A stretch of 64,000 bases of DNA, from the NCBI GenBank assembly GCA_030697795.1, contig JAUYOV010000004.1:211334-275333 (forward strand), in the 5' to 3' direction. The position numbers and the translations under genes are program-made. Numbering within the stretch: the stretch's first letter is position 1; every line of letters begins with the position of its first letter. Under the pieces are notes generated by a model. The model was not told the DNA's origin. It saw nothing but the letters and a program-made list of their open reading frames with translations, and ran no database searches. Shown here in pieces: positions 14,691-40,547 of this stretch. The DNA comes from a bacterium. GTDB taxonomy: Bacteria; Patescibacteriota; Minisyncoccia; JACQLN01.

Positions 14691-14707
14691 GTTTTTGAGA
14701 AAAAAAT

Positions 14708-14785
14708 ATCATTCCGAACAGCATTATGGAGAAGACTAATTTATAAATAAAGAGGCTCCATATCGTCTGTGAGGAATGATATTTT
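14708..14785 (+). repeat. About 78-bp structured repeat X, copy 1 (upstream of tatD)
   Basis: About 90% identical to 29077-29157. Nested inverted repeats (TCATTCC/GGAATGA; ATGGAG/CTCCAT). Confidence 0.8.
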
Positions 14786-14787
14786 TA

Positions 14788-16269
14788 CTAGTTTAATCTA
14801 GGAAACAAATTCTCGCCTTTCTTAAAGTTTATTGCGGATTCTGTAAACCAGATTTGTTTTCTAATTTTTTCGCCTGTTTCTGGTAAAAATGGTTCAACCA
14901 AATTTAGTATAACACCTAGCAAGTAGCCAGAATTAGCCATAACTTTCCTAAGATTTTCAGTTGAAACCACGTTTGACGTGGCGTCTTTAATTTCCCAAGG
15001 TTTTTTATCGTTAATATATTTATCGGCAAAAGAAACCAAACCCCAAACATTTATTAAAGCTTCGTGTAATTTAATTTCGTCTAAAGAAGATTCATATGCT
15101 TTATAAAAATCGTTGCAAGCTTTTTTAACTTCTGGTTCTATATCCGTAGCAAAATCAAACTTTACCGGGTTTATTTTTTCGCCCAAAGTAACTGTGCGCG
15201 CTACCAAATTTCCTAAACCATTAGCTAAGTCTGCGGAATATCTATCTTCAAACTTTCTTAAACTAAAATCTCCGTCATCGTAAGAAGGAATTTCTCGTAA
15301 AAGATAGTAACGTAACGCATCTGTGCCATATTTTTGAACCAGTGGCACAGGATCCACAATATTACCCAAACTTTTAGACATCTTTTGCCCTTCCACCGAA
15401 ATAAAACCATGAACAAAAATAGCTTGGGGTAATGGCAAACTAGCCGATAAAAGTATACCCGGCCAAATAGCCGCATGAAAACGTAAAATATCTTTGCCTA
15501 CAACTTGAAGATCGGCTGGCCAAAGTTTTTTAAATTGCTCGGTTTCATCGCCATAGCCAATAGCTGTAATGTAATTAGCTAAAGCATCACACCAGACGTA
15601 TATAACTTGGTCGGGATCGCCAGGCACCGGTACGCCCCACGGCAAATCTTTTTTAGGCCTAGAAAAGCTAACATCCTCTAAACCAGATTCTATAAAAGAT
15701 AAAATTTCATTTTTACGAGATTCGGGAATTATTTTTAATTCGTCATTTTTAATTTTAGAAGCAATCTGGCTTTGATATTTTGAAAGCCTAAAAAACCAGT
15801 TTTCTTGTTCTACTGTTTCTGGTGCTTTTTGGTGATCGGGGCATTTACCATCCACCAAATCTTTTTCTGTTTTAAAAGATTCGCAACCCACGCAATAAAG
15901 CCCGTTGTATTTTTTCTTATAGATATCACCGGCTTCCGAAAGTTCCTGCCATAATTTTTGAACACCTGGCCAATGAACTTCTTGATCGGTTGTTCTAATA
16001 AACCCATCCCAAGAAAGATTTAAAACATTTTTTAACTGTTTAAAATATTCTGCGTTTTCGTTTACAAATTCCTGTGCATTTTTATTCTCTCTTTCGGCTG
16101 CGCGAAAAATCTTAACACCGTGTTCGTCGGTACCCGTTAAAAAGAAAACTTCATCACCTTTTATTCTGTGATAACGCGCCAAAACATCCGCTTGAATCTT
16201 TTCTAAAGCGTGTCCAATGTGCGGTTTCGCATTAACATAATCAATGGCGGTTGTAATATAAAACTTCAT
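14788..16269 (-). CDS. metG: Methionyl-tRNA synthetase (short form, no C-terminal tRNA-binding domain)
   Basis: HIGH motif PHIGHALE and KMSKS; Met-RS catalytic core. 493 aa. Confidence 0.9.
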   Translation of the reverse strand: MKFYITTAIDYVNAKPHIGHALEKIQADVLARYHRIKGDEVFFLTGTDEHGVKIFRAAERENKNAQEFVNENAEYFKQLKNVLNLSWDGFIRTTDQEVHWPGVQKLWQELSEAGDIYKKKYNGLYCVGCESFKTEKDLVDGKCPDHQKAPETVEQENWFFRLSKYQSQIASKIKNDELKIIPESRKNEILSFIESGLEDVSFSRPKKDLPWGVPVPGDPDQVIYVWCDALANYITAIGYGDETEQFKKLWPADLQVVGKDILRFHAAIWPGILLSASLPLPQAIFVHGFISVEGQKMSKSLGNIVDPVPLVQKYGTDALRYYLLREIPSYDDGDFSLRKFEDRYSADLANGLGNLVARTVTLGEKINPVKFDFATDIEPEVKKACNDFYKAYESSLDEIKLHEALINVWGLVSFADKYINDKKPWEIKDATSNVVSTENLRKVMANSGYLLGVILNLVEPFLPETGEKIRKQIWFTESAINFKKGENLFPRLN

Positions 16270-20055: not shown

Positions 20056-20180
20056 CTCTTTTGTTTGGAAACTACCAGAGGACGACCAGCTATGTTGTCG
20101 TTGCGATTGCTAGACCAATTGTAGTTGACGTTGGCTAGACCACCGTTCTCACGGTTACCACCGTAAAGCCGGCTGGAGTC
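20054..20180 (-). repeat. DGR template repeat TR1 (AAC-rich on the minus strand)
   Basis: About 127 nt, nearly identical to 20491-20618. All 8 differences are A in TR1 versus C/T/G in VR1. TR1 encodes GGNRENGGLANVNYNWSSNRNDNIAGRPLV. Confidence 0.85.
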
Positions 20181-20431
20181 CTCAAATTTTTGCTTTAAAC
20201 CGTCCATAATCACCGAAAATCTAAATATAAATTTTCTGAAATCCGCATCCCACGGATAGTTTTTTACTCGGCAACTCTTAAATAATCTAAGAATACCCGA
20301 TCTAGTTTAAAGCAAGGAGTTTCGTTATTTCCTGTTTTAAACAGGAGAGTAAATGCGAGAATAAACCTTAGTCTATTCTTCATTAGCTTTACTCAAGGAA
20401 AATTTTACCAAATTTGTGAAAATAAAAAAAT

Positions 20432-20451
20432 CCCCCAACTTACGTTGGGGG
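20432..20451 (-). promoter_or_regulatory. GC-rich hairpin (CCCCCAAC-GTAA-GTTGGGGG) about 40 bp downstream of VR1
   Basis: 8-bp stem with a GNRA-type loop on the target strand. Confidence 0.4.
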
Positions 20452-20486
20452 AAAATCCAAGGGCCAAAGCCCAAGGGGAAAAGAAC

Positions 20487-21320
20487 CTACTTTGCGAAAC
20501 TCACCAGAGGACGACCAGCTATGCTGCCGCTGCGATTGCTAGACCAATCGTAGTTGACGTAGGCTAGACCACCGTACTCACGGTGACCACCGTAAAGCCG
20601 GCTGGAGTCCTCAAACTTATCGTCGAACCACTCCCACATATTGAATCGGCCGCGATTGCTGTCGTAGAGATTGCCAATGGCATTGGACTCTACAGCCCGC
20701 TCCAACCGAACCTGTTCGGGTTTGAAACCGAATGCTTCGGCGATAGCAGGACAAACCACATCTCGCCATTCATCGTTGGTAATGGCAAAACGAGAGCCCG
20801 AAGGAGTATTATCGTGTTTGCCGATTTTTCCTTCTTCGCGCAATTTACTGATGATTAGCGCGAGAGGGTCATTGGAAAATACTTGCGTGCCGTCGGTGTA
20901 ATTCACACCGACGGTGAAATCAGCTAGATACCAACCTCTGTAGAGTTTGGCACTGTCGGGGGCGAGCTTGCCTTCCCCGATTTTCTGGTAGAACCATTTT
21001 TCAGGTTTTACCCAATTCTTGAGCTTGCAATTCTCGCCAATTCCTTCCATCGGCAGATATACCGGCCTGAAGTCGAACCCAGCCCACTTGGCCAAGTTCT
21101 CTTCGGTGAATTCGGGAGGCAGAGGATCAACATCCACACGGAAGAACTTTTGAAGCTTCTTCTGTGTTGCCTCCACTAAAGCTACCAGCAAAGACACTAT
21201 GCGATGTTCGTTGAAAGCTTTAACACTTTCCAAAGTGTGACTGCCGTCATCTATCTGACGGAAAAAATCTTTGAGCACGCCGGACCACGCCGACATCTCA
21301 CCGACTGGGGCATTAGCCAT
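20487..21320 (-). CDS. DGR target protein 1 (FGE/C-type-lectin-like C-terminal variable domain); GC-rich
   Basis: VR1 lies at the C-terminus. The pattern WEWFDD...RLYGG...GRPLV resembles FGE-type CLec folds. Strong SD AGGAGA upstream. Confidence 0.75.
   Translation of the reverse strand: MANAPVGEMSAWSGVLKDFFRQIDDGSHTLESVKAFNEHRIVSLLVALVEATQKKLQKFFRVDVDPLPPEFTEENLAKWAGFDFRPVYLPMEGIGENCKLKNWVKPEKWFYQKIGEGKLAPDSAKLYRGWYLADFTVGVNYTDGTQVFSNDPLALIISKLREEGKIGKHDNTPSGSRFAITNDEWRDVVCPAIAEAFGFKPEQVRLERAVESNAIGNLYDSNRGRFNMWEWFDDKFEDSSRLYGGHREYGGLAYVNYDWSSNRSGSIAGRPLVSFAK
20491..20618 (-). repeat. DGR variable repeat VR1 (3-prime end of target 1)
   Basis: Encodes GGHREYGGLAYVNYDWSSNRSGSIAGRPLV at the C-terminus of the 277-aa ORF. 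Confidence 0.85.
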
Positions 21321-25542: not shown

Positions 25543-25870
25543 ATAGATGAATTGTATCGTAACAAGAGAAAAATATCACGCTAAAGGAATGTTATAATAT
25601 TCATATCCTGCTAATGCAGTTTGAACCATGGTTCAAACTCGCGGGATATCTCATTTTTGCCTTTCCGCCAAAGCTTTACGGGCGGTAAAAGAATCGCCAG
25701 AGTATTAAACCTTACGGGGTTTAATAGCGTGCGAACTAAAATGGAGATGGAACTTCTTGCTTGTTTTTGGTGGAGATTCCGCCAAAGGCGGATGCTCCCA
25801 AGTAAAATTCAGGAAAGAAGAAACATAAATTTCATACTTTCCGGTGATATTGGATGGAAACAAGCAAAAT

Positions 25871-25992
25871 CTTGACTCCGATGGCAACCGCGTTAGCGTC
25901 GGCAACTTCGATCAGAACGGCCTCAACATCAACAACAACTGGGACGATAACCGCAACGACAATCTTGGCCTGGCCTCCTCTCGAACTTCCAT
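25871..25992 (+). repeat. DGR template repeat TR2 (AAC-rich on the plus strand, non-coding location)
   Basis: Matches the reverse complement of 27629-27749. Encodes VGNFDQNGLNINNNWDDNRNDNLGLASSR, versus VR2 VGDFDRFGLYFDYDHDDNRYDSLGLASSR. Confidence 0.75.
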
Positions 25993-26002
25993 CTGCAACC
26001 AT

Positions 26003-26026
26003 AAAACCCTCCTTTAGGAGGGTTTT
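26003..26026. terminator. Bidirectional hairpin AAAACCCTCC-TTTA-GGAGGGTTTT between TR2 and the avd2 stop
   Basis: 10-bp stem flanked by A/T runs on both sides. Confidence 0.5.
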
Positions 26027-26037
26027 ATGGTTTTGCA

Positions 26038-26388
26038 TCAATGAGTTTTTGACGAGCGGATCCAACCGCCTAACATCCGCCCTATCTCATTAACCATTTC
26101 CTGAATTAAAATATATTTTTTATTCTCTAAAACACCAATATCTTTAGCCAAGCGGACATAAACCCTAAAAAGATTGAGCTTAACACTAACTCTTTCTAAG
26201 TATGTTACTCTTTTGAGCTTATCCAAACTGCTTATTTCCAACAAATAGCCCAATATCTCAATCAAAATCAAATTGCATTTCTCGCCTAAAGAATACTTGT
26301 CTTGCTTGGGAAAACCTTTCAAACAAGCATAAAATTCTTTATATAAATCGTAGGTTTTTTTAAATAGCGGAATATCAAAACTATCCAT
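26038..26388 (-). CDS. avd: Avd-like accessory variability determinant (avd2)
   Basis: 116 aa. C-terminus EIGRMLGGWIRS. Paralog of avd1 and avd3. Start diverges from RT2 with a 2-nt overlap. Confidence 0.75.
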   Translation of the reverse strand: MDSFDIPLFKKTYDLYKEFYACLKGFPKQDKYSLGEKCNLILIEILGYLLEISSLDKLKRVTYLERVSVKLNLFRVYVRLAKDIGVLENKKYILIQEMVNEIGRMLGGWIRSSKTH

Positions 26389-27382
26389 GAAAATTTATCA
26401 AAATATATACGAACAAATAATCTCTGCCGAAAATTTGTTTCTAGCTTGGGCAGAATTCAAAAAAGATAAACAAAAAAGAAAAGACGTTATGCAATTTGAA
26501 TACAGGCTGGAAAAAAATATTTTAGGCTTGTGCCAAGAACTAAAAAATCAAACATATAAGCATAGTCCTTATAGTAATTTTTATATAACCGACCCCAAAC
26601 CCAGGCACATTCACAAAGCATTGGTTAGAGACAGAGTGGTGCACCATTCAGTTTTTAATATCCTTAATCCTGTTTTTGAAAAAACTTTTATCTTTAATTC
26701 TTATTCCTGCAGAAAAAACAAAGGCACTCACAAGGGCATAAACCAATTACACAAAATTTTAAGAAAAATAAGCCAAAACAATCATAAACCATGCTTTATA
26801 TTAAAATGCGATATTAAAAAATTCTTTCAATCAGTTAATCACGGTATTTTGTTAAATATTATTGATCGAAAAATATACGATGAAAAAGCATTGGCCTTAA
26901 TTAAAGAAATTGTAGAGAGTTTTAAACCCGGGTTGCCCATAGGCAACCTAACCAGCCAATTATTTGCCAATATTTATTTAAATAATCTGGACCAATATAT
27001 AAAGCACCATTTAAAAATTCCCTTTTATATAAGATATACCGATGATTTTGTGATTATTTATAACGATTTGGAAAAACTAAAACAGTGGCTTAGCCAGATT
27101 CAGGAATTTTTAAATGTAAACCTAAAACTACGTCTGCATCCCAATAAAGTTATTCTGCGCAAATATCATCAAGGAACTGATTTTTTGGGCTATGTGCAAT
27201 TTCCCCATTATTGTATTTTGCGCCCTAGAACCGAAAGAAGAATAATGAAAAGGATACAGCAGGGAGTTTCTGAACAATCGCTAAATTCATATCTAGGTGT
27301 GCTTTCTCATGCTAATAGTTATAAATTATCGGAAAAAATCAAAAACTTGTTTTGGTTTAATAAAAAAGAAAACCCGTCTTGA
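26387..27382 (+). CDS. DGR reverse transcriptase (RT2)
   Basis: IGNLTSQLFANIYLN (SQ motif); IRYTDDFV. Matches RT1 and RT3 along its length. Confidence 0.85.
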   Translation: MKIYQNIYEQIISAENLFLAWAEFKKDKQKRKDVMQFEYRLEKNILGLCQELKNQTYKHSPYSNFYITDPKPRHIHKALVRDRVVHHSVFNILNPVFEKTFIFNSYSCRKNKGTHKGINQLHKILRKISQNNHKPCFILKCDIKKFFQSVNHGILLNIIDRKIYDEKALALIKEIVESFKPGLPIGNLTSQLFANIYLNNLDQYIKHHLKIPFYIRYTDDFVIIYNDLEKLKQWLSQIQEFLNVNLKLRLHPNKVILRKYHQGTDFLGYVQFPHYCILRPRTERRIMKRIQQGVSEQSLNSYLGVLSHANSYKLSEKIKNLFWFNKKENPS

Positions 27383-27427
27383 TGGACGAGTTAAAAAATA
27401 ATTATAATTCCACAATTAAAAATTACG

Positions 27428-27463
27428 TTGGTTGGTTGGTTGGTTGGTTGGTTGGTTGGTTGG
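27428..27463. repeat. Microsatellite (TTGG)9
   Basis: Perfect tetranucleotide tandem repeat between the RT2 stop and the target 2 stop. Confidence 0.9.
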
Positions 27464-27567
27464 AATTGGAACTCTCTTTCATTATAAATTTAGTATAACA
27501 TAATTGGTTATAAAAAATTGAACCCTCGGATTTTCCGAAGGTTCAAGAAACAAAATTCAAAAGCCTG

Positions 27568-27597
27568 CCCCGCACCGAGCTACGCTCTGGTGCGGGG
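27568..27597 (-). promoter_or_regulatory. GC-rich hairpin (CCCCGCACC...GGTGCGGGG) about 30 bp downstream of VR2
   Basis: 9-bp perfect GC stem. Position is analogous to the hairpins after VR1 and VR3. Confidence 0.4.
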
Positions 27598-27622
27598 ATT
27601 CAATACTTCAAAACTCAACTCC

Positions 27623-28396
27623 CTATTTGGAACTTCGAGAGGAGGCCAGGCCAAGACTGTCGTAGCGGTTATCGTCATGGTCGTAGTCGAAGTAGAGGCC
27701 GAACCGATCGAAATCGCCGACGCCAACGCGGCTGCCATCGGAGTCAAGAGACGAAGTTCGGACATAGGTGTGTTCGAACAGTCGCTCACCAGTAGCCATG
27801 AAGTGGCCAATGATGGCGTAGACCACCACTTGCGCCTTCGGTGTTTCCTCGTCTTTGCCGAGTAGCTTCTGCTGATCATCCCAAGTCTTGGACGTGGAAT
27901 CCATAACCGGAGTTTTGCGGACGAGATGCCATCCGACTTCGCCCTTGTATTTGGCAAAAGTCTCCTTGTTGTACCAATCCTGTTCATAAAACAGGCGCTG
28001 ACCGTTGTTAGCGACCTTGCCTCGGATGTCCAGGATTGAGAGAGGAAAAATGGCGACAAGGGTATGCGTGTCTCTTGCCTCGGTAAGCTCGGCTTCAGTG
28101 AACGGAACTTCGGCCAAAGCCGAGATCTGCGCTCGCGTGGGCTTTACACCGAGATACTGAATCGCTTCCTCTACCCCAAACATGTTGCGCCCCATTATCT
28201 GATGGGCCGTTTTCTGCGAAGTGGTGGCTTCATAGCCGCCGTTGCTGATAAGCCTAACCACTTTCGTGGCAAGGTCATTGCCCTTGGAGCCTATGACTCT
28301 CTGGGCAAGTTCATCGTTGAGGCCAGCGGCCTCAAGTTTTAGGAGCACTTCATGCTCTTTGTGCACCGACAGAGTACGGCTCACGATGGTTTCCAT
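27623..28396 (-). CDS. DGR target protein 2 (C-terminal variable domain); GC-rich
   Basis: 257 aa. VR2 at the C-terminus. Strong SD GGAGGT upstream. Confidence 0.75.
   Translation of the reverse strand: METIVSRTLSVHKEHEVLLKLEAAGLNDELAQRVIGSKGNDLATKVVRLISNGGYEATTSQKTAHQIMGRNMFGVEEAIQYLGVKPTRAQISALAEVPFTEAELTEARDTHTLVAIFPLSILDIRGKVANNGQRLFYEQDWYNKETFAKYKGEVGWHLVRKTPVMDSTSKTWDDQQKLLGKDEETPKAQVVVYAIIGHFMATGERLFEHTYVRTSSLDSDGSRVGVGDFDRFGLYFDYDHDDNRYDSLGLASSRSSK
27629..27749 (-). repeat. DGR variable repeat VR2 (3-prime end of target 2)
   Basis: See TR2. About 13 mismatches at TR adenines. In addition, one codon differs at all three positions (TGG in TR, CAT in VR) and there is one C/T difference. 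Confidence 0.75.
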
Positions 28397-29038: not shown

Positions 29039-29076
29039 AAACGGTAAAAGTATAACATGTATCCTAAATTAAAATT

Positions 29077-29157
29077 ATCATCCCGAACAGCATTATGGAG
29101 AAGACTATCTTATATAAATAAAGAGGCTCCATATCGTCTGTGAGGGGTGATAATTTT
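29077..29157 (+). repeat. About 80-bp structured repeat X, copy 2 (upstream of recO-like, divergent from the GT39 gene)
   Basis: See copy 1. The outer stem shows a compensatory change (TT/AA to CC/GG). Confidence 0.8.
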
Positions 29158-29211
29158 TCTTAAAAACTTGCTGGCGAGCGAAAGAGCAATTTTTAAGCTA
29201 AACTATTAAAC

Positions 29212-34370: not shown

Positions 34371-37300
34371 TTAAATATTTTTAATCCCCACCCCGATTTC
34401 AAATCCTTCATAATTCCAAACTTTGTGGACCAAGAAATTTTCGTGTTCGGTTATGCCAAAGTTAATTTGTGTAGAACGAGTTTCGGCTTTTATAACTTGT
34501 TCCCAACGAGTTAATAATTCTTTAAAGTTGGCGTTTTGGTTAAGTTCGTAATGTAAAATTATTTTATCTTCTGGTGTTAATTTGGCTTCTTTTCGCATTT
34601 CGTTTATATTGCGAATCATTTCACGAACCATTCCTTCTTCCTTAAGCTCCGCCGTAAGTTCGGTATCCAAATTAACGTTGTTCTTTTCTATTTTTCTATC
34701 ACTTAAAACTTTTTTAACATTGAGTTCTTCGGCAACTATATATAGAACATCGCCAATTAAATTGTAATCAGCCGGTGAAACATATAAAGCATTTAAGGGC
34801 TGGCGTACGCGCAAACCCGCTTGAGCGCGCTCGGCAAGCCCCAGCGCCACAATTTCGCGGGCTCTATCCATGACTTTCGTAATATCGGAAGCCTTAACAG
34901 TTTTGGTATTTGGCCATTTTTCCAAATGAACCGACTCCCCAAACGCCGATAAACGCCGATTTTTATCCGCGCTGATCCGCGCTGATCCTTGCGTTAATCC
35001 GCGTAATTCTTGATAGAGCCATTCCGATATAAACGGCGCAAATGGCCCCATAACAACAGATACGCGTTTTAAAACTTCGGTTAAAGTATTTTGAGCCGAT
35101 AGTTTTTCGGCATCTATATTTTGCTTTTGGAACTTACGGCGGCTACGGCGTATATACCAATTAGAAAGTTCGTCTATAAAAGCTTCTATAGCACGCGAAG
35201 CGGAAGTAATGTCGTAGCTTTCTAAAAATTTATTTACTTCGAACTCCAACATTTCTGTTTTAATCAAAACCCATTTATCTAAAATATCTGTTTTGGCTAG
35301 TAAAGATTTCGGAGCTTCGGTGTAATAAGTTTCTAAAAACAAAAACGAATTAATTAAAGTATCGGCGAATCTACGTTTTTTAGATTCTATATCGCGCAAA
35401 CTAAAAAGTTTATTATCGCCCGGCGCGTTTACAGTGTAAAAATACCAACGCATCATATCGAACCCAACTTTCTCACCCACCAGCCAAGGGTCTACAATGT
35501 TCCCTTTAGACTTCGACATCTTCTCGCCCTTTTCATCTAGAACATGGTTTAAACTAATTACATTCTTATACGGATTACCTTCGCCTAAAGCGGTAGATAC
35601 CGCCATTAAAGTATAAAACCAGCCCCGGGTTTGATCGATCGCTTCGCAAATATAATCTGCTGGAAAATGGTCTTTCGGTAAATTTTTATTTTTTATATTT
35701 AAATTTTTCTTGTCCTTCGAAGCCTTGCTGTGCCACTCCGTAGCTTTGAGCGAAGGGTGGGCGTAGGAGGAAACTTGAGACGCCCACGGCATTGCACCCG
35801 AATCAAACCAAACATCGGCCAAGTCTTTTATACGTTCCATCTTCGAGGAACACATAGAACACTTAAGGAACACGCTATCGGCATAGGGGCGATGCAGGTT
35901 TAAATTGCCTTCTTCATCGTGGGGCCAGTTATTTGTTTCTACAAAAGTAAATTCGGCAGGGGACAAAGCTAGTTTAGAATCTTTAACTGCGTTTTGATAC
36001 AAAAGTTTTGTTTCGTCTTCGCCATAAATTCCATTAGATAATTGCATTAAAAATAAGGGGTCCATATGGCTTACCACAACCACCTTCTTGCCAGCGTGTT
36101 CTCTAGAAACATCCATCATAAATTCGCGCACCCGTTTGGCCACATCCAACCACGATTCGCCTGCCGGCGCGGGGCGAATAAATTTATCTTTAAAAGAATT
36201 AAAATATTTTTCATATTCCAAAAATGGCCCGCCATTAAACTCGCCAGTGTTTATTTCGCGTAAGCGTTCATCAAAAATTACTTCTTTTATTTTAAGTTCG
36301 TCCGCCAATATTTGAGCCGTCTCTCTGGCTCTTAATAGATCCGATGAATATATGGCCGATACCTTATTAGCCGCCAAAAGTTTTTTTATATTTTGGGCGG
36401 ATGCCTCTGCTTGTTTTCTACCCTTTTCGGTTAGGGGGTTTAAAATCTTTTCAGGGTAAGCACTGCAAATACCTTTAGCGTTAGATTCTGCTTCGCCATG
36501 GCGCATTAAAATTAAAGTGGTTGGAGAATCTAGGCGGTGTTCGTTAAGCTCGGCTAAAGAACCAATAACAGTTTTGTGTTCGCATTTGGTGCATGCCCAA
36601 ATTGGCAAGGGTGTTCCCCAATAGCGTTCGCGGCTTATAGCCCAGTCTTTAACCTCGCGTAACCATTCGCCAAACCGGCCATCTTTAATGTGTTCGGGCA
36701 CCCAATTAACTTTTTCGTTATTTTTAATTAGATCGTTTCTTAACGCCGACATTTTTATAAACCAACTTTCTTGGGCGTAATATAGTAAGGGCGATTTACA
36801 CCTCCAGCAAAAAGGATATTCGTGCTTATAGCTTGACTCATTAAACAGCAAATTTTGTTTTTTTAAGTAAAACAAAATCGTTTTTTCGGTTATGGGGTCT
36901 TTTTTGTTTTCACTAACAACAGCAAGCCCGCCTACTATAGGAACAGATTTTACAAAAACTCCTTCACGATTAACCGTGTGGAATTTAGGCAAATTTAATT
37001 TGGAACCGAGTTCAAAATCGTCGACGCCATACATTACGGCTGTATGCACAATGCCCGTACCATCTGCGGTAGTTACAAAATCGGCTTCGTAAACTCTGTA
37101 CGAATTTTCGGATTCCAACTCTTTAACAGCAAAAAGTGGTTCGTAAGAAAGTCTAGTAAGCTCGCTAGAAGTTAGTTCTTTATTTATTTTGTATTCTACT
37201 TTAGCCTCGCCAAAAACTTTAGGCGCTAAATCGCGAGCCAAAATATATTTTTCACCATTAGCTTCGACTTCTACATAGGTAACTTTCGGGCCAACAGCTA

Positions 37301-38003
37301 ACGCAACATTTCCCGGTAACGTCCAAGGCGTCGTGGTCCAAGCCAAAAGAAAAGTGTTTTCTCCGCCAGCTGGCGGATTTTTAACTTTAAATTTTATTAT
37401 GACCGACTTATCTGTAACTGTTTCGTAACCCTGCGCCACTTCGTGGCTGGAGATGGGCGTACCACACCTAACACAAAAAGGCACAACTTTATAATCTTTA
37501 ACTAAAAGTTTTTTATCGTAAATTCTTTTTATAATATTCCACAAACTTTCTATGTATTGCGGTTCGTAGGTTATGTATGGGTTTTTAAGGTCGAGCCAGT
37601 AACCCATGCGGCGCGTTAGCTTTTCCCATTCATCTTTATACTGCCAGACTGATATTTGGCATTCTTTATTAAATTGAGCGATGCCGTATTTTTCTACTTC
37701 GCGCTTATTTTTTAAACCTAATTTTTTTTCGACTTCAATTTCTACCGGCAAACCGTGTGTATCCCAACCAGCCCGACGCAAAACATAGCGCCCTTTCATT
37801 GTTTGAAAACGGCAAACAATATCTTTAAACGATCTAGCTAAAACATGATGGAGCCCTGGTTTACCGTTGGCCGTAGGCGGGCCTTCGTAAAATACGAAAG
37901 GTTTACCATCTTTAGTGGCTTTTAAAGTCTTTTCAAAAACATCGTTATCGTGCCAATGTTTTAAAACTTTTTCTTCTTCTTGGGGTAAATCAACGTGACG
38001 CAT
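34371..38003 (-). CDS. ileS: Isoleucyl-tRNA synthetase with an inserted histidine-phosphatase (PGAM-like) domain and repeat-derived in-frame inserts
   Basis: HIGH-type motif PPTANGKPGLHHV; KMSKS; editing domain. The insert LILMRHGEAESN...VVVSHMD (RHG and second His motifs) sits between WACTKCEH and LHRPYAD. Confidence 0.9.
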   Translation of the reverse strand: MRHVDLPQEEEKVLKHWHDNDVFEKTLKATKDGKPFVFYEGPPTANGKPGLHHVLARSFKDIVCRFQTMKGRYVLRRAGWDTHGLPVEIEVEKKLGLKNKREVEKYGIAQFNKECQISVWQYKDEWEKLTRRMGYWLDLKNPYITYEPQYIESLWNIIKRIYDKKLLVKDYKVVPFCVRCGTPISSHEVAQGYETVTDKSVIIKFKVKNPPAGGENTFLLAWTTTPWTLPGNVALAVGPKVTYVEVEANGEKYILARDLAPKVFGEAKVEYKINKELTSSELTRLSYEPLFAVKELESENSYRVYEADFVTTADGTGIVHTAVMYGVDDFELGSKLNLPKFHTVNREGVFVKSVPIVGGLAVVSENKKDPITEKTILFYLKKQNLLFNESSYKHEYPFCWRCKSPLLYYAQESWFIKMSALRNDLIKNNEKVNWVPEHIKDGRFGEWLREVKDWAISRERYWGTPLPIWACTKCEHKTVIGSLAELNEHRLDSPTTLILMRHGEAESNAKGICSAYPEKILNPLTEKGRKQAEASAQNIKKLLAANKVSAIYSSDLLRARETAQILADELKIKEVIFDERLREINTGEFNGGPFLEYEKYFNSFKDKFIRPAPAGESWLDVAKRVREFMMDVSREHAGKKVVVVSHMDPLFLMQLSNGIYGEDETKLLYQNAVKDSKLALSPAEFTFVETNNWPHDEEGNLNLHRPYADSVFLKCSMCSSKMERIKDLADVWFDSGAMPWASQVSSYAHPSLKATEWHSKASKDKKNLNIKNKNLPKDHFPADYICEAIDQTRGWFYTLMAVSTALGEGNPYKNVISLNHVLDEKGEKMSKSKGNIVDPWLVGEKVGFDMMRWYFYTVNAPGDNKLFSLRDIESKKRRFADTLINSFLFLETYYTEAPKSLLAKTDILDKWVLIKTEMLEFEVNKFLESYDITSASRAIEAFIDELSNWYIRRSRRKFQKQNIDAEKLSAQNTLTEVLKRVSVVMGPFAPFISEWLYQELRGLTQGSARISADKNRRLSAFGESVHLEKWPNTKTVKASDITKVMDRAREIVALGLAERAQAGLRVRQPLNALYVSPADYNLIGDVLYIVAEELNVKKVLSDRKIEKNNVNLDTELTAELKEEGMVREMIRNINEMRKEAKLTPEDKIILHYELNQNANFKELLTRWEQVIKAETRSTQINFGITEHENFLVHKVWNYEGFEIGVGIKNI
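34941..35009. repeat. ATCCGCG-unit repeat in frame inside ileS
   Basis: AAACGCCGATAAACGCCGAT...ATCCGCGCTGATCCGCGCTGATCC..TAATCCGCG. Confidence 0.7.
35714..35770. repeat. Small palindromic repeat family, copy in frame inside ileS
   Basis: CCTTCGAAGCC...CCGTAGCTTTGAGCGAAGGGTGGGCGTAGGAGG. Confidence 0.7.
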
Positions 38004-39071: not shown

Positions 39072-39443
39072 ATGAAAAATCTCTATTTTATCTGGTTTCA
39101 ATACTACCAGATTTTACCCAAAGCGCATCGCTACACGCTTGGCCGCAGAATTGACTCTATGTTTATTGAAATAGTTGAAGCGATAGTTACAGCGTCTTTT
39201 CTAACGCAAGAAAAGAAGCTCCCGTTTGTTCAGCACGCCCTTCGCAAAACAGACACGCTTAAAATCCTATTACAAGTATTATGGGAAACTAAATCTTTAG
39301 ATGATAAAAAATATATAGCCGTATCAAAACCTTTAGAAGAAATCGGCAAAATGCTGGGTGGCTGGAATGGCCAGCTTCAAAAACCCCTCGACATAGCTCG
39401 GGATAAAGAAAACTCTCCCCACAAAAAGCAGAGAGAGAAATAA
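39072..39443 (+). CDS. avd: Avd-like accessory variability determinant (avd3)
   Basis: 123 aa. C-terminal EEIGKMLGGW motif. Confidence 0.75.
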   Translation: MKNLYFIWFQYYQILPKAHRYTLGRRIDSMFIEIVEAIVTASFLTQEKKLPFVQHALRKTDTLKILLQVLWETKSLDDKKYIAVSKPLEEIGKMLGGWNGQLQKPLDIARDKENSPHKKQREK

Positions 39444-39447
39444 AGAA

Positions 39448-39573
39448 AGTTGCGAGCACGGCCGAAGGATTGTTGGCATTCCAGTCGTTCTCAAGCCAGT
39501 TGTAGTTCCAGTCCCACTCACCATCGTTCCAGTAGAGATAAAGAACGTTGCGGTTGCCATTCGGACTGCGAAT
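39448..39573 (-). repeat. DGR template repeat TR3
   Basis: Encodes RSPNGNRNVLYLYWNDGEWDWNYNWLENDWNANNPSAVLA. Begins 5 nt after the avd3 stop. Confidence 0.85.
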
Positions 39574-39824
39574 ATATTGTATAAAGCGCCACCTATGCCA
39601 CCACCCCTTGAATACTCTTAGGGTTGTATCGTATTTGGTATCTAAAATACCCTAGCGCTATATACCGAGTATCTTCATTTTTTTAAGCTTCCATAAACCA
39701 CCCTATTCCCAACCGTAATCGGGAATACTCTCGATTTATGGTTACTGGCTTCGGTAGCAGGCAACCTTAATCGCCCGCGTATTCACCTAATACCATTTGC
39801 ATAATAACATTTTGCAAAAGAAAA

Positions 39825-39851: not shown

Positions 39852-39902
39852 TTTAGAGTACAAAGTCCAAAGGATCTAAAAGTTCTAGAATTCTAAGGAC
39901 TA

Positions 39903-40547
39903 TTAACTCGCGAGCACGGCCGAAGGATCGTAGGCACTCCAGCCGCCCTCAAGCCAGCGGCAGTACCAGCCCCACCCACCACCGCCCCAGCAGAGACAAA
40001 GAACGTAGCGGCGGCCAAGCGGACCGCGAAGGGTGGTGCCGTCAAAGGAAATGAAGGTGGTATTGCTGTTCGTTTTTTCTTTCCAACTTTCGGGAATAAG
40101 ACTCTTGTTTTCCCAGAGAGTTTGGAAGATTTTGGCATCTAGGCGGACGTAATTTTTGGCTTTGAGGCGCTTCAGTTTCTCTTCACCTTTGATGACACTC
40201 TCGTCTTCTTTGAGGCAAGTGACTAACTGGATGTTGGAGAGGTCTAGCTCGGTGAGGTTGAGAGAGCGCTCATCCTGTTCTTCCTCGCCCGAGAGACCAT
40301 CGCCATCTGCTGGACCTTTCCAGATGCTCCAACCTTCGCCCAAAAACTGGGCGGGGTTGAAGGGTTGGGTGCGGTTGATTTTTAAGACCGTATCTCCAAA
40401 ACGCCCCTCCACCGCATTCTGCAAATAGCGTTGGAGTTTTGCCGGATCGTAGGGATAACCCTTGGGCTGACGAAGCTGTCGGCCAATTTCAAAAAGCTGG
40501 CCAGTGATGCTTTCGTACAGTTCGCCTGCGACACTAGGATGTGCCAT
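39903..40547 (-). CDS. DGR target protein 3 (C-terminal variable domain); GC-rich
   Basis: 214 aa. VR3 at the C-terminus. Confidence 0.8.
   Translation of the reverse strand: MAHPSVAGELYESITGQLFEIGRQLRQPKGYPYDPAKLQRYLQNAVEGRFGDTVLKINRTQPFNPAQFLGEGWSIWKGPADGDGLSGEEEQDERSLNLTELDLSNIQLVTCLKEDESVIKGEEKLKRLKAKNYVRLDAKIFQTLWENKSLIPESWKEKTNSNTTFISFDGTTLRGPLGRRYVLCLCWGGGGWGWYCRWLEGGWSAYDPSAVLAS
39905..40030 (-). repeat. DGR variable repeat VR3 (3-prime end of target 3)
   Basis: Encodes RGPLGRRYVLCLCWGGGGWGWYCRWLEGGWSAYDPSAVLA. 24 substitutions relative to TR3, all at TR adenines. Confidence 0.85.

Follow-up and report, generated by a model that had tools for sequence, protein, structure and literature searches.

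A B3-type diversity-generating retroelement from a Patescibacteriota bacterium with a convergent target gene and a private three-base change in its variable repeat

A 64,000-nucleotide stretch of a Patescibacteriota contig (GenBank assembly GCA_030697795.1, contig JAUYOV010000004.1, positions 211,334 to 275,333 of the forward strand), referred to below as the window, was analyzed with respect to one of its three diversity-generating retroelements (DGRs), termed DGR2. The element consists of a template repeat (TR2) on the plus strand, a bAvd gene on the minus strand, a reverse transcriptase (RT) gene on the plus strand and a target gene on the minus strand, which lies downstream of the RT gene, converges with it and ends in the variable repeat (VR2) (Table 1). 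The bAvd and RT genes diverge and their start codons overlap (CATG). The RT protein (RT2) finds its best PDB match in the Bordetella phage bRT 8ub7 (E = 6.8e-48, residues 3-305). It contains the sequence IGNLTSQ at residues 185-191, which corresponds to the DGR signature [I/V/L]GxxxSQ, the catalytic YxDD motif in the form of YTDD at residue 217, and conserved counterparts of the bRT residues R74, I181 and Q187. For the target protein, 762 homologs at 65-72% identity were obtained, nearly all of them in metagenome-assembled genomes (MAGs) of Patescibacteria. Relatives of the target and the RT stem almost exclusively from Patescibacteria, Paceibacterota or 'Saccharibacteria' MAGs, and the GC content of the window is 38%. 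An AlphaFold2 model of the target, obtained with 119 homologs, reached a mean predicted local distance difference test score (pLDDT) of 61, with values below 50 in the VR region. The model gave no Foldseek match in the PDB at E < 1, and searches by sequence yielded no PDB or Pfam match.

Table 1. Coordinates (window numbering) of the DGR2 features and of the repeats of the two other DGRs
Feature	Position	Strand	Basis or remark
Structured RNA directly 5' of TR2	25758-25866	+	covariation in 46 homologous TR-upstream regions
Template repeat TR2	25870-25991	+	32 adenines, mostly in AAC codons; family consensus at each non-adenine mismatch site
16-bp stem-loop between TR2 and the antisense avd stop codon	25997-26032	+	sequence
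bAvd, 116 aa	26038-26388	-	Pfam PF22296 bAvd, E = 2.3e-19
DGR reverse transcriptase, 331 aa	26387-27382	+	Pfam RVT_1; best PDB match bRT 8ub7
Intrinsic terminator of the target gene	27518-27546	-	
Two further TTGA repeats	27543-27546 and 27557-27560	-	
GC-rich hairpin, 9-bp stem CCCCGCACC/GGTGCGGGG	27568-27597	-	about 30 nt downstream of VR2
Three TTGA repeats, 7-8 nt spacing	27600-27618	-	between stop codon and hairpin
Target gene, 257 aa	27623-28396	-	widespread Patescibacteria family; no Pfam domain
Variable repeat VR2	27628-27749	-	target 3' end; CAT (His240) at 27677-27679; marker G at 27633
DGR1 TR/VR	20066-20195 / 20495-20624		core differences at adenines only
DGR3 TR/VR	39440-39580 / 39898-40038		core differences at adenines only

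Local alignment and a repeat finder were used to delimit the repeat pair. TR2 matches the reverse complement of VR2 over 122 nt without gaps and at 85% identity, and VR2 makes up the final 40 codons of the target open reading frame (ORF). This match had been claimed in an earlier note made from the sequence alone, with coordinates that were off by 1. The note had further estimated about 13 differences at TR adenines, and exactly 13 of the 18 mismatches are found at such positions (7 A>G, 6 A>T), each of them non-synonymous and located at codon position 1 or 2. With 32 adenines in 122 positions, the bias has a hypergeometric P of 1.1e-5, and 13 of 17 mismatches fall on adenines when the boundary marker described below is left out. 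The other differences amount to five bases: a C>T exchange (25906/27713), the codon change TGG>CAT (25940-25942/27679-27677) and a C>G exchange (25986/27633) that lies 5 nt inside the end of the homology. The first two, together four bases, had been recognized in the earlier note; the C>G exchange had been missed. An assembly artefact had also been considered there as a source of such differences. The Logan contig L001 (SRR13727529), which stems from an independent assembly, agrees with the window at every base over 1103 bp, and this stretch comprises the complete target with the CAT codon and VR2. The CAT codon is therefore not the artefact of one assembler.

A set of 57 loci around target homologs from GTDB genomes and 80 loci around RT homologs from metagenomes was used for comparison. 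The 29 TR/VR pairs of the target family were aligned on common columns, and 80 pairs in total were re-scored with a matrix that tolerates mismatches at adenines. At all five non-adenine positions, TR2 carries the consensus of the 28 other family TRs (TGG, GGCAACTT and the AAC of the 3' marker). All 29 aligned TRs have TGG at the tryptophan codon and GGCAACTT(C/T) at the C>T site, and tryptophan occupies the homologous column in 107 of 119 proteins, with 7 more carrying it one residue earlier. As TR2 keeps the family consensus at the C>T and TGG sites, it is VR2 that changed, and the suggestion that the TR itself had drifted is rejected.

The C>T exchange occurred at the third position of a codon that also carries an adenine mutation at its first position (AAC>GAT, Asn>Asp); on that background it is silent. 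Across 79 pairs, mismatches were counted at 65 of 5005 non-adenine sites (1.3%), compared to 62.6% at adenines; 31 of the 79 pairs contain at least one such mismatch and five contain at least four. Substitutions at non-adenine sites were reported for 23% of DGRs and are frequent and multiple in DGRs of the candidate phyla radiation (CPR) (Wu et al., PMC5758913), and the misincorporation of bRT at U, C and G in vitro amounts to 0.4-1.7%, which is near assay noise (PMC7826257). The C>T exchange lies within the family background of non-adenine mismatches and is ordinary drift or background RT error. The idea that such mismatches adjoin mutated adenines as dinucleotide RT errors fits L007, L021 and L038 but not L002 and was dropped without a formal test.

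Three adjacent substituted non-adenine bases, as in TGG>CAT, were detected in the window alone among the 80 pairs, since the one other 'triple', found in L109, is due to a 3-nt indel that keeps the frame. For four random hits on about 90 non-adenine sites, three adjacent ones are expected with P of about 0.003 and codon-aligned ones with P of about 0.001. This clustering is improbable under independence, which argues that TGG>CAT either arose in a single step or was shaped by selection acting on the codon. The exchange replaces the usually conserved tryptophan by histidine and is the only case in which the TR encodes tryptophan and the VR does not. The scaffold tryptophan is dispensable, as the TRs of L063 (4632-4750) and L067 (2508-2625) carry CGG and CTG, respectively, and their VRs follow with the same codons. 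A small inversion, a register shift, AAC-slippage and a template switch were considered as sources of CAT, and inspection of TR1, TR2 and TR3 by eye revealed neither a donor nor an alternative alignment.

At the 3' end, both repeats contain the GC-rich block GGCCTGGCCTCCTCTCG, followed by AAC in the TR or AAG in the VR. A C or T in the TR faces a G in the VR at this column in 14 of the 29 family pairs, six more have C in the TR and A in the VR two nucleotides upstream, and many metagenomic TR/VR pairs carry a like difference. The VR version gives AAG for the conserved lysine of the C-terminal ...ARKF, while the TRs read AAC, CAG or AAT. DGR3, whose VR is unrelated, has AAC in the TR and GAG in the VR, a marker of the same kind as in DGR2, and DGR1 has a single G in the VR that is absent from the TR at the equivalent place; the type of marker is thus conserved across unrelated VRs. 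Judging from these alignments, the C>G exchange is a conserved boundary marker that would distinguish donor from recipient, comparable to the IMH*/IMH (initiation of mutagenic homing) pair, and not a mutation. The five non-adenine bases are accounted for by this marker, a silent background transition and one private three-base change of the VR. Hence, no new mutagenic mechanism is needed, and neither is the proposal of the earlier note that some of the mutagenesis is not specific for adenine.

The position of the target downstream of the RT gene and convergent with it, which sets DGR2 apart from DGR1 and DGR3, is as the earlier note described it, but it does not represent a new feature. Most of the fetched loci show the order target (+), TR (+), avd (-), RT (+). 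The layout of the window (target->, <-RT, avd->, <-TR) was also found in L002, L012 and L067 and, among RT relatives with other types of VR, in L103, L104 and L134; in L045, the module is inverted and placed upstream of the target. This flipped variant is a minority, with 3 of about 25 family loci in genomes and 4 of about 55 in metagenomes. On several occasions, the module has thus been turned around with respect to the target, which is to be expected if the complementary DNA (cDNA) homes in trans. A link between the flipped layout and mismatches at non-adenine sites was rejected, as flipped pairs contain 0.38 and canonical pairs 0.87 such mismatches. In one flipped locus (L012, 570-4572), the target is tandemly duplicated together with a partial RT copy, and its two VRs show no difference over 180 nt. 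A (GGTT)x9 microsatellite (27427-27463) lies in the 240 nt that separate the convergent RT and target genes of DGR2. It may be the mark of a rearrangement junction or a contingency repeat and is absent from the corresponding gap of L002.

The architecture termed B3, which consists of a TR, an avd gene on the reverse strand and an RT gene, was reported for 90% of CPR DGRs and hardly occurs outside this group (Wu et al. 2018, NAR, PMC5758913). DGR2, with TR2, antisense bAvd and RT in this order and a host among the Patescibacteria, falls under this definition. It shares with the CPR B3 DGRs a single target with a C-terminal VR, an AAC-rich TR, a GC-rich IMH-like end and occasional multiple non-adenine substitutions, whereas their targets are located upstream and on the same strand (PMC5758913). 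Every feature by which a DGR and the B3 type can be recognized at the sequence level was found, so that DGR2 is, by these features, an ordinary B3-type CPR DGR. The traits that had been flagged in it, namely avd and TR on the other side of the RT, a convergent target and non-adenine differences, have already been described in kind (PMC5758913). The closest relative found is L002 (MAG contig CAYHXG010000027.1), with RT and Avd proteins that are 83% and 84% identical, the identical flipped layout, a target of the same family (71% identity), the C of the marker and a TR that lacks the same single nucleotide (see below). L002 differs in a VR that keeps TGG as well as the additional G (CTCGGAAG), in 26 rather than 13 mismatches at adenines and in two non-adenine mismatches at positions other than those of DGR2.

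The regions flanking the repeats were searched for conserved RNA and DNA elements. Directly 5' of the TR, a structured RNA of 110-135 nt is present in all three DGRs of the window (about 20190-20330 on the minus strand before TR1 and about 39573-39720 on the minus strand before TR3) and in nearly all fetched loci (L002-L145). RNAalifold analysis of 46 TR-upstream sequences yielded 31 pairs in five helices, and 27 of these pairs show compensatory changes. Paired cells amount to 96.2%, compared to 79.4% in 500 shuffled alignments, none of which attained the real value, and to 42-58% when the partners were slid. The closing helix P1 (25758-25768 paired with 25856-25866) ends 3 nt before TR2, and the RNA also contains a AATAAAAT-WCAG box that is invariant and single-stranded. 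An Rfam search of the TR flanks gave no family match. The RNA is possibly the part of the DGR transcript that binds RT and Avd or that stops reverse transcription, and P1 may, by analogy, act as the 'cPRT Stop' duplex of Handa et al., whose analysis extended no further than 40 nt before and 100 nt after TRs (bioRxiv 10.1101/2023.10.23.563531). For 207 of 278 DGRs, those of CPR bacteria included, the same study predicted that Avd binds a stem-loop that follows shortly after the TR. A strong hairpin with varying stem sequence occupies this place in nearly all family loci, and the stem-loop that follows TR2 may be such a binding site; it could also serve as a bidirectional terminator.

On the target side, YTTGR motifs occur 3.7 times per 80 nt downstream of VRs, compared to 0.56 in shuffled sequences, 0.61 downstream of TRs and 0.14 when the opposite strand is counted. 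They form arrays of 4-5 repeats with a modal spacing of 8 nt, followed by a GC-rich hairpin and a terminator, and were also identified in DGR1 (about 20440-20480, minus strand) and in 74 related loci. Targets whose adjacent DGR has been lost still possess the array, whereas distant homologs (43-52% identity) do not. The array may be an element of target recognition, and no description of it was found in Wu et al. (PMC5758913). The position of the hairpin downstream of VR2 is analogous to that of the GC-rich inverted repeat downstream of the IMH in the BPP-1 DGR (PMC5758913), and a similar function is conceivable. The BPP-1 element (mtd-avd-TR-brt) further resembles DGR2 in its homologous RT (E = 7e-48; equivalents of R74, I181 and Q187), its Avd, adenine-specific differences between TR and VR, a mismatch of TR and VR at the 3' boundary (IMH versus IMH*) and a stem-loop 3' of the TR. 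In contrast, DGR2 has a large conserved structured RNA upstream of the TR, a marker of a single nucleotide and a chromosomal rather than a phage context.

These elements fit a mechanism in which TR2 would be transcribed from the plus strand together with the 5' structured RNA and the 3' stem-loop. The complex of RT and Avd would copy the TR2 RNA into cDNA, with misincorporation at adenines, and the cDNA would replace VR2 at the 3' end of the one adjacent target that is served. Since the process would be independent of the target orientation, the module could be inverted without loss of function. C25986/G27633 would coincide with the 3' limit of information transfer or lie beyond it and would hence never be copied. 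TGG>CAT would then be a single private multi-nucleotide mutation of the VR that occurred later than the last homing event over this codon.

Evidence for transfer in this lineage comes from a single nucleotide next to the marker. The TRs of the window and of L002 lack one G (CTCGAAC, window 25983-25986) that is present in other TRs (CTCGGAAC). VR2 shares this deletion (CTCGAAG, 27633-27636), which shifts the reading frame of the target C-terminus to ...RSSK* instead of ...RKFQN*, whereas the VR of L002 (about 2320-2335) keeps the G. The shared deletion suggests that information was transferred from TR to VR and that this transfer approached the marker to 3 nt or less without passing it. Co-conversion of the deletion, if it took place, would put the 3' limit of transfer into the 3 nt that precede the C/G marker. 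The ORFs of RT, bAvd and target are full length, and the RNA elements flanking the TR, the marker, the TTGA array and the GC-rich hairpin are intact. Taken together, DGR2 is probably an ordinary DGR that is functional now or was so until recently and whose VR acquired one private multi-nucleotide mutation.

Several observations weigh against this interpretation. As the VR of L002 keeps the additional G although its TR is without it, transfer across this position is not obligatory, and the deletion in VR2 could be an independent event. The target forms a 90%-identity cluster with a single member and the Logan contig crosses the VR without a break, so that there is no direct sign of ongoing diversification. 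Close variants of VR2 or the target were not found in the protein collection, and a look-up of exact proteins gave no match for the RT and only one identical short contig for the target. The cores of DGR1 and DGR3 are free of non-adenine mismatches, which leaves DGR2 with the least clean repeat pair of all three. Finally, a run of three such substitutions occurs in no other pair among the 80.

Part of these observations would also be accounted for if the cassette were inactive and decaying, VR2 had long not been rewritten and tryptophan had been turned into histidine stepwise, for example by W>R>Q>H or W>C>Y>H. Two non-adenine events in VR2 with none in DGR1 and DGR3 and the single VR2 haplotype are in agreement with this view, as is the history of the target family. 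Its members often stand without adjoining RT and avd genes or beside short RT remnants (L005, L008, L009, L022, L034, L040, L059, L061, L065), and in the first six of these the target appears to have outlived the DGR. Three homologs without an adjacent DGR (P0061, P0099 and P0109) have lost the tryptophan by ordinary substitutions (TCA in two of them, TTG in the third). Nevertheless, decay is considered unlikely, as the full-length RT retains its catalytic and DGR-specific motifs, Avd and target are likewise full length, TR2 keeps the family consensus, and the 5' RNA, the 3' stem-loop, the marker, the TTGA array and the hairpin have all been preserved. Beyond the tryptophan codon, only 1 of about 85 non-adenine sites differs, three independent hits on the same codon have a P of about 0.001, and VR2 shares the single-nucleotide deletion specific to the TR.

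An origin of TGG>CAT in the DGR machinery itself, by low RT fidelity, template misalignment or error-prone repair at integration, would imply that the mutagenesis is not strictly adenine-specific. The C>T exchange beside a TT run would suit an RT dislocation error, and the closest relative L002 has two non-adenine mismatches and an indel. Lower RT fidelity with multiple non-adenine substitutions was suggested for CPR DGRs (Wu et al., PMC5758913), and the family rate of 1.3% is of the same order as that of bRT in vitro (PMC7826257). Yet a rate of about 1% per site would not give three adjacent non-adenine misincorporations, a second such run was not found in 79 pairs, and the determinants of adenine selectivity are conserved in RT2. 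In addition, L012 and L067, which belong to the same RT clade, are free of non-adenine mismatches in the repeat body, and the inspection of TR1, TR2 and TR3 by eye, which was not a systematic search, gave no donor for a template switch. A contribution of the machinery is therefore judged quite improbable. The more specific proposal that the retrohoming machinery made the Trp>His swap by introducing a patch that was not templated, or wrongly templated, while the cDNA was synthesized or integrated is highly improbable; if true, CPR DGRs would occasionally rewrite scaffold codons beyond the reach of adenine mutagenesis and thereby widen the sequence space of the variable protein. Hardly credible is a VR2 that was templated in trans by another TR, or a MAG contig that is a strain chimera with TR and VR from different strains. 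Trans-acting DGRs and remote targets are documented (PMC10907252; PMC5758913), this genome carries three DGRs inside 22 kb, and the window covers 64 kb of a 278-kb contig. However, a second TR2-like repeat was not found in the window, TR1 and TR3 have no CAT at the homologous place, and all family TRs carry TGG (CGG and CTG in L063 and L067) and never a codon compatible with CAT. A donor TR with CAT, AAT, CAA or AAA would need three changes from the consensus, and the independent assembly yielded the identical target.

Two further features of the window were recorded outside the DGRs. A 1210-aa protein resembling isoleucyl or other class-I tRNA synthetases is encoded on the minus strand at 34371-38003, and residues 497-650 of it are an inserted histidine phosphatase domain (His_Phos_1). 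Two copies of an intergenic element of some 90 nt lie at 14702-14789 and 29071-29160. They are 85-92% identical and 14.4 kb apart; one of them is located just downstream of recO and upstream of a gene for a PMT-family glycosyltransferase.

DGR2 itself adds one more example to the B3-type DGRs of CPR bacteria. For this family, the analysis exemplifies that 'non-adenine differences' need to be sorted into markers, background noise and private mutations of the VR before they are read as altered mutagenesis. The single-nucleotide marker, the covarying RNA 5' of the TR and the TTGA array with its 8-nt period inform how donor and recipient may be recognized in CPR DGRs.

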